A stretch of 64,000 nt of DNA. Source: an uncultured delta proteobacterium. GTDB taxonomy: Bacteria; Desulfobacterota; Binatia; Binatales; Binataceae. Below, piece by piece: positions 16,785 through 20,404 of the stretch. The DNA is taken from the NCBI GenBank assembly GCA_963765675.1, contig CAVXXK010000001.1, positions 1,024,001-1,088,000 on the forward strand, in the 5' to 3' direction. The position numbers and the translations under genes are program-made. Below the pieces are notes generated by a model. The model had not been told where the DNA came from, ran no database searches, and saw only the letters and a program-made list of their open reading frames with translations. Within the stretch, counting starts at the first letter, position 1. The number at the start of each line of letters is the position of its first letter.

Positions 16785-16949
16785 TTCAGTATCTCCTAAG
16801 ACGGTCGTCTAAGATGCTCCAAGGGTTCGCAGACTGCACGAACGTACCGTATCGACGCGGATGGTAGAAGCGCCTGCAATCCCGCAGGGCGCTTGCTAGC
16901 GGCGTCGGCGGATAGCATTTATGAAACATCGAGCGACGGAGGTTTTGAG

Positions 16950-18284
16950 ATGGCGGATTCCTACTTGTCCGAGCTGAGGCGAAAAACCGTCGGTGCCGAA
17001 GAGGCTGCGGCGTCAGTCAAATCGGGCGACTGGGTCGAGTACGGATTCGGACTGGGGCAGCCTGATCTGTTCGATCAGGCGCTCGCGGCGCGCGTCGGCA
17101 AGCTCGAGCGCGTGAAGCTGCGTGGATGCCTTGCGATGAAACCGCGCGCGGTGATTGACGCCGATCCCGATGGACGTCACGTCGATTATTTTTCCTGGTA
17201 TTTCTCGGGTCTCGAACGGAAGCTGCACGATCGCGGCCTGTGCCATCATATTCCGATGAACTTCGGCGAGGCACCCGACGACTATCGCCGCTTCGTCGAC
17301 GTGGACGTCGCGGTGCTGAAGTGCGCGCCGATGGACGAGCACGGCTATTTCAATTTCGGTCCGTCGGTGACCTATCACAAAGCGATCACCGAGAAAGCCA
17401 AGCATCTGATAATCGAAACCGACGCGAGCGTGCCGTATGTTTTTGGGCTCGAGTGCGGCGTTCATATCAGCGATGTCGATCAGGTGATCGACGCCGGCAC
17501 AGGCGTGCTGCCCGAGCTCAAAAATCCCGCACCGGGTCCCGCGGATCAGAAAGTCGCGGAGCTGATCGCGCCGGAAATCAGGAATGGCGCGTGCCTGCAG
17601 ATCGGAATCGGTGCGATGCCGAATGCCGTCGCCGAACTGCTCGCGGGCTCTGCGGTCAAGGATCTCGGGGTCCACACCGAGATGTTCGTCGATTCGCTAA
17701 TCTCGCTGTATGAGGCGGGCAAGATCACCGGAGCGCACAAGGCGGACAATCTTTACCAGATGACTTATTGCTTCGCCGCGGGCTCGTCGCGCCTGTACAA
17801 GTTTCTCGATCGCAATCCGGCCTGCTTCGCGGGCCCGGTCGATTACACGAACTTGCCGCATCACATCATGCGCAACGACAATGCGGTCGCGATCTGCAAC
17901 GCCGCGCAAATCGATCTTACGGGACAAGCCTGCTCCGAATCCGCCGGTATCCGCCAGATCAGCGGCACTGGCGGCCAGCTCCAGTTCATTCGCGGCGCGT
18001 ACGCCTCGGCCGGAGGTAAGGCGATCTTGTGCCTCGCCTCGACCTACGAGCGTGCGGGCAAGCGCGCCAGCCGTATCGTCGCGCGGATCGACGATTCGAA
18101 CGTCGTGACCACGCCGCGCACCGACGTGATGTATGTGGTAAGCGAATATGGAATCGTCAACCTGAAGGGAAAGTCGGTGCCGGAGCGGGCGCGCGCGCTG
18201 ATCGGACTAGCGCATCCGGATTTTCGCGAAGAGCTGGAGCGCACGGCGCGCGACTACCGGCTGTTGCCGCGATCGATCTTTTAG
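16950..18284 (+). CDS. Acetyl-CoA hydrolase/transferase family CoA-transferase
   Basis: PMDEHGYFNFG, LQIGIGAMPNAV, DLGVHTEM, SGTGGQLQF, AHPDFREEL. Confidence 0.92.
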   Translation: MADSYLSELRRKTVGAEEAAASVKSGDWVEYGFGLGQPDLFDQALAARVGKLERVKLRGCLAMKPRAVIDADPDGRHVDYFSWYFSGLERKLHDRGLCHHIPMNFGEAPDDYRRFVDVDVAVLKCAPMDEHGYFNFGPSVTYHKAITEKAKHLIIETDASVPYVFGLECGVHISDVDQVIDAGTGVLPELKNPAPGPADQKVAELIAPEIRNGACLQIGIGAMPNAVAELLAGSAVKDLGVHTEMFVDSLISLYEAGKITGAHKADNLYQMTYCFAAGSSRLYKFLDRNPACFAGPVDYTNLPHHIMRNDNAVAICNAAQIDLTGQACSESAGIRQISGTGGQLQFIRGAYASAGGKAILCLASTYERAGKRASRIVARIDDSNVVTTPRTDVMYVVSEYGIVNLKGKSVPERARALIGLAHPDFREELERTARDYRLLPRSIF

Positions 18285-18598
18285 TGCTGCGTCGAAGCGG
18301 AATCGCCGGTGAATTTGTAGACCAGCTCGCCGTCGCGGGTGAAGCCGAGTTCGCGCCGAATCAGGTGTTCCAGGTAGCGATCGTTGGAACTAAGGTTCTG
18401 AACGCTCGTTCTGAGCGTATCGTTGCGGGCCACAAGCTCCGCGCGCCGCGCCTCGAGCGCGCGGCGCCTGGTGCGCAGAGCCAGCAGATCGTGCGGCCCC
18501 AGCGGGCCCATCGCGAGGCTCGCCCCGAGGACCACTAGGATCCCGCCAAGGATTAGGCAGAGCCATTGGCGCCGCACGTAGTTACTTAAGCGAAACAT
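18281..18598 (-). CDS. ftsB: Septum formation initiator FtsB/DivIC
   Basis: Single TM, coiled coil, 'YLEHLIRRELGFTRDGELVYKF'. Confidence 0.8.
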   Translation of the reverse strand: MFRLSNYVRRQWLCLILGGILVVLGASLAMGPLGPHDLLALRTRRRALEARRAELVARNDTLRTSVQNLSSNDRYLEHLIRRELGFTRDGELVYKFTGDSASTQH

Positions 18599-18734
18599 CG
18601 GGCTAATCGTAAAGCACGGCGGGGGCCGAGTTCAAGACTGCTCCGGCTTAACGTCATTCTAAAGTTCGGAAAGCGTATGGGATCAGCGGCTCGTGCCGAC
18701 TTTAGAATTTCTTTATAAATCTGCGCCGAGCCTG

Positions 18735-18763
18735 TTGCATTCGCAATAACGGGTTTCTATAAT
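18735..18763 (+). promoter_or_regulatory. Sigma70 promoter
   Basis: TTGCAT-N17-TATAAT. Confidence 0.8.
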
Positions 18764-18845
18764 CGGCACCGAGGGGTGGGGAAGGTTAGACCACTCATTA
18801 GGTAGGGAGCTTATCCAGCAGCGGCCAACGGAAGAGGAGGTGTCT

Positions 18846-18944
18846 ATGCCAGTGAAGAAGAAGGCCCCCAAGCGGGCCACCAAATCCAAGTCAAAGCTCA
18901 AGAGCGGTATGAAGAAGAAAGCCGGCAAAAAGAAGAAGAAGTAA
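18846..18944 (+). CDS. 32-aa lysine-rich (histone H1 tail-like) peptide, absent from the ORF track
   Basis: RBS GAGGAGG, ATG, MPVKKKAPKRATKSKSKLKSGMKKKAGKKKKK*; lies between a promoter and a terminator. Confidence 0.8.
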   Translation: MPVKKKAPKRATKSKSKLKSGMKKKAGKKKKK

Positions 18945-19038
18945 CTAGCCAAAAGTTTTCCTCCGAGCTTTAACCCCTCGGAGGCTGGCTAACGATGCCG
19001 GGCTAGCTGCTGGAATGAGCCGAGGCGCTAACGCCTCG
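18945..19038 (+). ncRNA. Structured 3' UTR or candidate ncRNA (three-way junction plus hairpin, UAAC loops)
   Basis: CTAGCC/GGCTAG encloses CCTCCGAG/CTCGGAGG and TGGC/GCCG hairpins; then CGAGGCG/CGCCTCG. Confidence 0.45.
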
Positions 19039-19044
19039 TAAACC

Positions 19045-19080
19045 GAGAGAGCCTCCGTAACAGGGGGCTCTTTCCTTTTC
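19045..19080 (+). terminator. Rho-independent terminator
   Basis: GAGAGAGCCTCC-gtaaca-GGGGGCTCTTTC followed by CTTTTC. Confidence 0.75.
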
Positions 19081-19146
19081 CGTGATCCTTGCGTCCGCGC
19101 CGCCTGGCACCTAATGATTGCGATCTGCGCGAGCTGCGCGGCTCTA

Positions 19147-20404
19147 ATGAATCCTCCTGATTCCACCTTCGACGCGATTATCGTCGGCGCGCGCGTAGCC
19201 GGAAGCGCGGTTGCGATCTCTCTGGCGCGCAGCCGGACTCAAGATCCTGCTGATCGACAAGGCGGCGTTTCCGTCCGATACGCTCTCGACACATATCGTC
19301 CTGGCCGGCGGCGCGAAGGTGCTGGCCCGGATGAACGCGCTGGAGCATCTCGAACGCGCCGGCGCGCGCCGCTACGAAAGGATGCGGATGCTGGGGCCCG
19401 GGTACGACTACGCTGTCGATCTGGCGGCTGATGGCGAAGATCTGCGCGGGTTCTGTTTCGGACGAATGCCGATGGACGCCGCGATGCTCGCGCTCGCGCG
19501 CGAGTCGGGCGCAGCGGTTCGCGAGCGCTTCAGGCTCACCGATCTGGTGATCGAGAACGGCGCGATCGCGGGAATCCGCGGCGAGGACGAGAGCGGCTCG
19601 CATGAATTTCGCGCAGCGCTCGTCATCGGAGCGGACGGGATGCGCAGCACGGTCGCGAAAATCGCGGAGGCGAAGCTCGGCGTCTTCGAGCGTACCGAGG
19701 TCCCATGCGCGCGCGCGTACTACTACTCGTACTATGAAGACGTAAGCCGCGAGCGCTTCGGCGACGATCTCGTGACCGAGCTCGACGCCGGACCCGGCCA
19801 GGGCGCGATCCTCTGCCGATGCGAGAACGATCGCGTGGTCGCGGCAGTCGCCTTCGACGCATCCCAGATGCATTCCTTCCGCACCGATCTGGACGGCAAT
19901 CTGAAGCGCGAGCTCGAACGTTCGTTCGTGGTTGGATCGCTAATCGAAGGCGGCCGCGCATCCGGAAAAATCTATTCGTCGGGAATGCTGCTCAACACTT
20001 ATCGCAAGCCGATCGCCGATGGGGCGCTGCTCGTTGGAGACGCGGGACTCCACGTCGATCCACTCTTCGGGCAGGGACATTCGCTCGCGCTGATGAGCGC
20101 CGAAATCGCGGGCGAGCTCGCGCCTGGATGGTTCTCGGCGCGAGAGGGCAGCGTCATCCGCGCCGCCGCGATGAGCGAATTCCTGCGCCGCCGGGATCGC
20201 CTGCTGATGCCCTACTATTCCTCCAGCGTCAGAACCTCTGGCGGCCTTCGCCACGATCCCACCGCGGACGCTGCGCATATGGTCGCGCAGCGCGAGACCT
20301 GGGCTGCGCGCGAGATGGCGGGCTTCGCACAGATGGCGTCAAGCTGCGGCTTTCCTTCGTTCCGGTTCGCGCGGATGCTTGCGCGGCAGGCGCGCGCCGC
20401 CTGA
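19147..20404 (+). CDS. NAD(P)/FAD-dependent oxidoreductase (geranylgeranyl reductase/halogenase-like), frameshift near 19230
   Basis: DAIIVGARVAGS in ORF 19114; DKAAFPSDTLSTH, VIGADG and LVGDAGLHVDPLFGQG in ORF 19211. Confidence 0.85.

Follow-up and report, generated by a model that had tools for sequence, protein, structure and literature searches.

A conserved small mRNA beside ftsB in the uncultured family Binataceae, with pairing between its 5' and 3' untranslated regions supported by covariation

Four consecutive hairpins with UAAC at or in their loops follow a short open reading frame in the 64,000-nt stretch of DNA analysed here (the window), and they raise the question of what kind of RNA they belong to. 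CsrB/RsmY-type sRNAs sequester a protein by presenting the same short motif at the loops of successive hairpins, and the original prediction for this locus was of that kind. It described a structured RNA outside the known families, possibly derived from a 3'UTR, whose successive UAAC loops would bind an RNA-binding protein. We find that the hairpins are the 3'UTR of a small mRNA encoding a 32-residue, lysine-rich peptide. What had been observed was largely right; the interpretation was right in seeing a conserved structured RNA and wrong about the display of UAAC and about the helix thought to close the structure.

The hairpins and the transcript that carries them

Every predicted stem was found where it had been placed. 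CTAGCC (18945-50) is complementary to GGCTAG (19001-06). Hairpin 1 pairs CCTCCGAG (18960-67) with CTCGGAGG (18977-84) around the loop CTTTAACCC, hairpin 2 pairs CTGGC (18985-89) with GCCGG (18997-19001) around TAACGAT, hairpin 3 pairs 19021-27 with 19032-38 around CTAA, and the terminator stem pairs 19045-56 with 19063-74 around GTAACA and is followed by a T tract. Folded alone, 18940-19085 gives a minimum free energy (MFE) structure identical to the one predicted, with an outer helix enclosing hairpins 1 and 2, then hairpin 3 and the terminator, at −66.5 kcal/mol (z = −4.67, matched by 0 of 200 shuffles; z = −2.62 for the opposite strand). The excess of UAAC is likewise real: TAAC occurs five times in 141 nt (18940-19080) against 0.12 expected from its frequency in the window (56 in 64 kb, 61.6% G+C), and nowhere else in the window do four or more copies fall within 141 nt. 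As had been supposed, no Rfam family matched: at gathering thresholds Rfam 15 gave no match in the whole window, and with permissive filters over 18550-19250 the two best hits, both falling on the terminator, stayed below their gathering scores (ctRNA_p42d, 22.8 bits against 50; Phe_leader, 18.5 bits against 55).

The hairpins belong to a monocistronic unit of ∼310 nt on the + strand (18770-19080). Its promoter (18735-18763) consists of the −35 hexamer TTGCAT (18735-40), a 17-nt spacer and the −10 hexamer TATAAT (18758-63); it was not listed by the consensus scan because TTGCAT agrees with TTGACA at only three of six positions. Both hexamers are conserved in the 30-locus alignment, as is an AT-rich stretch before them (18700-18720, +). 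The transcript opens with a hairpin, P0 (GGGUGG/CCACUC, 18774-18796, +), which is present in the MFE fold and is followed by the conserved single-stranded CAUUAG/AUAAG. The whole single-stranded segment at 18797-18808 (CAUUAG/AUAAG ... AGGG[U/A]GC) is conserved across genera, and no partner for it is evident. The translation initiation region (TIR, 18834-18853, +) comprises the Shine-Dalgarno sequence (SD) GAGGAGG (18834-40), GGUGUC (18839-44), the AUG (18846-48) and GCCAGU (18848-53), and is near-invariant in alignments A1 and A4. The small open reading frame (sORF) that it serves extends over 18846-18944 (+; 32 codons, product P0001) to a TAA stop at 18942-44. The unit ends in an intrinsic terminator (19045-19079, +) with a 12-bp stem, the loop GUAACA and a T tract, found by the terminator scan, in MFE folds and by RNAalifold; both its GC-rich stem (19045-74) and the T tract are kept in the alignments.

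The sORF bears the marks of translation, so that the transcript is not a noncoding sponge. It is intact at 31-37 amino acids in 29 of 30 loci, divergence at codon positions 1, 2 and 3 is 0.155, 0.186 and 0.322, and the synonymous share of codon differences is 876 of 1892 in the reading frame and, in the two alternative frames, 130 of 1923 and 219 of 1859. This codon-level signature identifies the sORF as a coding gene. Seventeen of the 32 residues of the peptide are lysine, and the non-lysine residues are conserved too. No family in Pfam or NCBIfam matched it. Its exact sequence was absent from a collection of 15 billion and present in the Atlas, where its neighbours score only 0.88-0.90 and are all unnamed; a peptide profile retrieved six proteins at E ≤0.001 among 1.84 billion representatives, all of 32-61 amino acids. 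In the literature on Binatota/Binatia and Binataceae/Binatales, as represented by titles and the opening parts of abstracts, nothing was found on this RNA or peptide.

The unit is represented in public metatranscriptomes, where six runs contained 34-43% of the sampled words of 18650-19150 and where the sequence is found in very small data sets from soil and litter. Contigs from four runs of four studies (soil, leaf litter) lay only within 18780-19074, and the flanks at 18650-18768 and 19075-19150 were without cover, which is no proof of silence. These contigs start at 18780-18786; one of 311 nt corresponds to 18782-19074 and others cover 18780-19021, which does not prove single molecules, and another matches the window without a difference over 242 nt. 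The longest ends at 19074, in the terminator stem. Contigs of this sort do not show true ends, DNA may be present in RNA libraries and divergence of the flanks may hide relatives, and so their confinement to 18780-19074, which agrees with the predicted start and terminator and with an intact mRNA more than with a 3' fragment, is weak evidence. The separate 3' fragment that had been suggested is not supported: the contigs span the 5'UTR, ORF and 3'UTR together, although contigs leave room for processing. The 311-nt contig (run X16) carries 18 further A-/T-rich letters after 19074 that do not match the window and could be a tail, an adapter or a chimera.

Of 36 other genomes of the family, 34 contained the unit in a BLAST search with 18640-19110; across 24 genomes of the class from outside the family the search gave one weak 35-nt match. 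For the 3'UTR, a covariance model (R1; 140 positions, 29 pairs) matched 142 of 151 family genomes, mostly once per genome; in a class-wide sample it matched 16 of the 17 family genomes, and outside the family two marginal matches (E about 0.007-0.009) came from 133 genomes. In the same sample the peptide profile matched 12 of the 17 family genomes, each time immediately before an R1 match, and none of the 133 others. One public Candidatus Binataceae bacterium MAG scored 152.9 bits against R1, and a loose pattern scan of genome contigs returned at least 120 stretches, with an R1 match in one among the 80 loci listed with identifiers. Judged by these searches, the unit and its peptide appear to be confined to one family, which the named MAG indicates to be the Binataceae, an uncultured Binatota lineage (PMC8262859; mBio, 2021). 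Three family genomes with 95-96% completeness (G061 in genus g51, G063 and G081 in genus g53) had no R1 match, and neither genus yielded the unit. Another three (G071, G082 and G173) had two each, on different contigs, which could reflect duplication, strain mixture or contamination.

Two unpublished genomes, G010 (locus L007) and G027 (L029), are included in A1, A2, R1, the RNAalifold and pairing results on 30 sequences and the BLAST, ORF, UAAC, codon and neighbour counts, and these two together with five more (G075, G091, G103, G116 and G165) are included in the R1 tallies for the family and the class sample. All seven were left out of every count based on A4, that is, helices, probabilities, complementarity, opening energy and RNAalifold on 50 sequences. 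A4 also omits loci from duplicate genomes (L051, L058, L064, L066, L067, L188, L189, L191-193, L195 and L197-199).

Pairing between the 5' and 3' untranslated regions

The three-way junction of the original prediction, closed by CTAGCC and GGCTAG, holds only for the isolated 3' piece; in the full transcript, and in relatives, GGCTAG pairs with the 5'UTR. As a closing helix CTAGCC/GGCTAG was 56.6% paired, with a covariation score reached by 124 of 500 shuffles, and was rejected. The conserved closing helix is a pairing of ∼16 bp between the two untranslated regions, hereafter the clamp, whose 5' strand GC-UUAU-CCAGCAGC-GGCC (18809-18826, +) and 3' strand GGCU-A-GCUGCUGG-AAUGA-GC (19001-19020, +) were both identified from RNAalifold, covariation and pair probabilities. 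RNAalifold predicted it de novo on 30 and on 50 sequences, the full transcript contains it in both its MFE and its centroid fold, and its pair probability is at least 0.6 in 44 of 50 transcripts. Across the 50 whole transcripts of A4, it has 91.1% paired cells and compensatory changes at 12 of its 16 pairs. G-U wobbles, which are mismatches on the other strand, occupy ∼64 of 800 cells (∼8%), a share that fits pairing of + strand RNA rather than a DNA palindrome. Comparative evidence thus shows that the finished transcript closes on itself through a 5'UTR/3'UTR helix; its 16 pairs, on comparative and thermodynamic grounds, are of the kind known from hbs, icaR and RNAIII.

The rest of the structure was examined on the same 50 transcripts, again with the unpublished genomes left out. 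As a whole, 86.0% of it was paired as compared to 32-46% when slid, and 0 of 500 shuffles reached any of the measures; the alignments were made with MAFFT, which is not structure-aware, and the structure tested came from the window's own sequence, which flatters the slid control. All six pairs of P0 had changed on both sides, with 77% of cells paired in an alignment that is not structure-aware. Hairpin 1 (CCUCCGAG/CUCGGAGG, 18960-18984, +), with a pyrimidine-rich 5' arm and GGRGG in its 3' arm, had 96.5% of cells paired and compensatory changes in six of eight pairs, and its loop sequence is not conserved. For hairpin 3 (CGAGGCG/CGCCUCG, loop CUAA, 19021-19038, +) the figures were 98.0% and four of seven pairs, again with a loop that is not conserved. 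These covariations, together with the Rfam search, the R1 matches and the RNA contigs, bear out the claim that the locus encodes a conserved, structured and transcribed RNA outside the known Rfam families.

In the resulting architecture the clamp joins the 5'UTR just upstream of the SD to the 3'UTR between hairpins 2 and 3, enclosing the start region, ORF and hairpin 1 in one loop, and the two ends are capped, the 5' end by P0 and the 3' end by hairpin 3 and the terminator. Two further candidates were not retained. A hairpin inside the ORF (18868-84) was 79% paired in 30 sequences and 50% paired in 50, and was dropped. A role of hairpin 1 CCUCC as an anti-SD was set aside: its central pair covaries (U-A in 29, C-G in 8, U-G in 12) while the SD is invariant, so the arm is constrained as a helix and not as a complement of the SD. 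In one locus (L021, genome G029) the sORF is cut short at 18 codons and there is no hairpin 3, and the clamp and terminator are kept.

Hairpin 2 and the start region

Of the four hairpins that had been predicted, all are present in the sequence and in the fold of the isolated piece, but hairpin 2 has a pair probability of at most 0.24 in 49 of 50 full-length transcripts. It lies in a conserved element, GCUGGC-UAAC-GAUGCC-GG (18984-19001, +), that can form either hairpin 2 or, in the full transcript, a pairing with the TIR. As a hairpin the element is 85.8% paired in A4, with a double change in only one of five pairs and with arms that are conserved in sequence. In full-length folds the partner of the TIR is 18984-99: GAUGCC (18994-99) pairs with GGUGUC (18839-44) and GCUGGC (18984-89) pairs with GCCAGU (18848-53). 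The two helices are separated by a small internal loop that contains the start codon's A and U. Both helices reach a probability of at least 0.4 in 35 of 50 transcripts. Element and TIR are complementary in 89.9% of cells as compared to 18-46% when slid, with little covariation, both partners being near-invariant. A G-to-A change at the fourth base of GAUGCC keeps a U-A pair with the TIR and breaks the C-G pair of hairpin 2. The RNAalifold consensus, on 30 as on 50 sequences, contained neither of these two alternatives, the hairpin or the TIR pairing.

Forcing the TIR (−14 to +10) open was predicted to cost a median of 7.5 kcal/mol in the full mRNA and 6.7 in an mRNA cut after the stop codon; the median difference was 0.37 kcal/mol, and it exceeded 3 in only 4 of 50 transcripts. 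Predicted energies in this opening-energy test of 50 transcripts thus do not back an occlusion of the start region that depends on the 3'UTR. The element is missing from 6 of the 50 transcripts, which belong to genera g15 (L028, L194, L065 and L190), g13 (L030) and g11 (L196) and have no GCUGGC..GAUGCC, and in genus g52 one TIR/element position is a C-C mismatch unless the register shifts. We consider the anti-TIR reading of 18984-19001, modelled from folds and complementarity, plausible but unproven. In the MFE folds of the transcripts that have no such element the SD is paired locally (g15) or with the region around the 5' arm of hairpin 1 (g11, in the MFE but not the centroid fold), which may be an alternative way to the same end, or noise. 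The idea that the 3' element mimics the start region or provides a second start was rejected, as the "AUG" within GAUGCC becomes AUA or GCU in several genera.

Possible functions and known parallels

We lean, on balance, towards reading this unit as a self-clamped, stabilised small mRNA that is strongly expressed, in the manner of hbs, icaR and RNAIII. Most likely, the clamp and end caps would shield the message from decay that depends on the 5' end and from endonucleolytic decay, and the genome encodes both RNase Y (685.5 bits) and RNase E/G (354.5 bits). Such shielding would give a long-lived, abundant message for a very short ORF. With less assurance, the clamp may place GCUGGC..GAUGCC opposite the start codon, which could let the finished mRNA switch between two states, one closed by pairing of the TIR and one open with hairpin 2 formed; such a switch might tie translation to the timing of transcription or to some further factor. 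The stronger version, a closed-loop mRNA that locks its start codon against the 3'UTR as well as holding its ends together, that is long-lived and translated co-transcriptionally or upon release by a signal, and that may act in trans like RNAIII, strikes us as a long shot. If it were true, the releasing signal might be, for example, the exit from dormancy in soil, and the unit would be the first case in bacteria in which circularisation through the 5' and 3' UTRs is backed by covariation across a phylogeny and not by one species alone.

A 2021 review (PMC7821165) lists three bacterial examples of pairing between the 5'UTR and the 3'UTR of an mRNA (RNAIII, icaR and hbs) and also states that even closely related bacteria usually do not share functional 3'UTRs, the hbs 3'UTR being given as such a case. 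[quoted passage not shown] The two have no sequence relation and differ in phylum and protein, and protection from RNases is presumed here; unlike the hbs 3'UTR as portrayed in that review (PMC7821165), the helix here is conserved and covaries across a whole family. As in Staphylococcus aureus icaR (Ruiz de los Mozos et al. 2013, PMC3868564), the 3'UTR contains an element complementary to the mRNA's own ribosome-binding region. Unlike in icaR, the complementary segments here lie on either side of the start codon and reach into the SD only at its final two G, a long clamp stands as a separate helix next to the element, and the predicted energetics show no added occlusion. S. aureus RNAIII/hld, as the review describes it (PMC7821165), likewise has a small peptide ORF in a multi-hairpin RNA with its 5' and 3' regions paired, and its 3' end is reported to delay translation; RNAIII is 514 nt long with known trans targets and C-rich loops, whereas the present RNA is about 310 nt long and its loops are not conserved. 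The likeness to hbs, icaR and RNAIII is one of kind and not of sequence, and does not amount to membership of a homologous family.

Some of the evidence could also be read in other ways. That the 3' part titrates or binds a protein through UAAC in four successive loops, in the CsrB/RsmY manner and possibly as a 3'UTR-derived sRNA, would account for the over-representation of UAAC and agrees with a transcribed RNA that has no Rfam family, and in the window's genus (g1, n = 11) UAAC is indeed at or in the loops of hairpin 1 in 10 members, hairpin 2 in 8, hairpin 3 in 6 and the terminator in 10. However, in the other genera (n = 18) the corresponding numbers are 2, 1, 0 and 2, although the stems persist across genera while the loop letters drift. 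Even inside the genus the loops of hairpins 3 and 2 have drifted (CUCA, UUUA, UUUG and UAAA; UAUC, UAAG and UAAU), and its most divergent member, L011, has no UAAC in its loops. By this comparison the UAAC loops are a peculiarity at the level of one genus and not the functional core of the RNA. The row of hairpins with a shared loop motif does make the RNA resemble CsrB/RsmY in this genome, but here the motif is limited to one genus, the RNA is an mRNA with a conserved ORF and it has no Rfam match; moreover, the RNA contigs join the 5'UTR, ORF and 3'UTR, and a consensus scan found no internal promoter. Titration of a protein by successive UAAC loops, the core of the original prediction, is thus unsupported, and we regard a protein-titrating 3' part as very improbable. 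A dual-function RNA like RNAIII, which would also base-pair in trans with other mRNAs through conserved unpaired or loop segments, is doubtful, if less so. The anatomy, a peptide ORF with a long-range helix between 5' and 3' regions, is that of S. aureus RNAIII in the same review (PMC7821165), the segments CAUUAG/AUAAG and AGGGUGC (between P0 and the clamp) and GCUGGCUAA-GAUGCC are conserved for no evident reason, and even very small metatranscriptome data sets hold the sequence, but GCUGGC..GAUGCC already has a partner in cis and the hairpin loops are not conserved.

The element at 18984-19001 bears also on the peptide itself. Ribosomal proteins act on their own leaders, and by analogy the basic peptide, or the ribosome making it, might bind this element or the clamp junction and so set its own translation or the decay of its mRNA. 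The sequence of hairpin 2 is conserved with no accompanying covariation, as is typical of a recognition site, the peptide is rich in lysine, and the strong promoter and SD resemble those of ribosomal or nucleoid protein genes. Pairing to an invariant TIR explains the conservation of the element equally well, however, and the peptide has no family assignment, so that we consider such feedback unlikely, albeit not as doubtful as pairing in trans. The rarest chance of all we give to a lysine-codon leader peptide with a transcription attenuator controlling the FAD-dependent oxidoreductase downstream (19211-20404, same strand). A short ORF very rich in one amino acid and followed by hairpins and a terminator would suit it, as would the weak match to Phe_leader mentioned above, and in 15 of 30 loci this oxidoreductase is the downstream neighbour, again on the same strand; in the other 15, however, the downstream gene differs and the unit is kept all the same. 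Furthermore, conservation extends to the non-lysine residues, RNAalifold (30 and 50 sequences) found no conserved antiterminator, the 3' arm of hairpin 1 could pair with the 5' arm of the terminator only in the window's genus, the RNA contigs stop at the terminator, and the 5'UTR partner of the clamp would have no role.

Returning to the self-clamped small mRNA, we take the unit to be a new instance, restricted to one family, of an mRNA architecture that is rare in bacteria; the comparative support for the structure is unusually good, and the function is what we infer from it. About 140 species of an uncultured soil family have kept this 3'UTR and, with compensatory changes, its pairing to the 5'UTR, which makes the unit a clean natural system for asking whether the stability or the translation of a short mRNA is set by clamping its two ends together. 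The unit also adds an unannotated small-protein gene next to ftsB. This gene, of the DivIC family, lies on the other strand and starts 171 nt upstream of the predicted transcript start, and the divergent arrangement is present in all 30 related loci, with a spacing of 164-197 nt.

Between the divergent ftsB and sORF promoters lies an inverted repeat, TAACGTCATTCTAAAGT (18649-18665) and ACTTTAGAATTTCTTTA (18699-18715), with arms of 17 nt that are 82% complementary and 33 nt apart. The cores of the repeat, ATTCTAA and TTAGAAT, are found again in most genera among the 30 aligned loci, and it could be a site for a shared regulator or UP elements. On its far side ftsB (18281-18598, −) converges with a butyryl-CoA:acetate CoA-transferase-like gene (16893-18284, +), which scored 481.9 bits where the curated cut-off is 674.8. 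The 3' ends of these ORFs share 4 nt, and the CoA-transferase-like neighbour is kept in most relatives.
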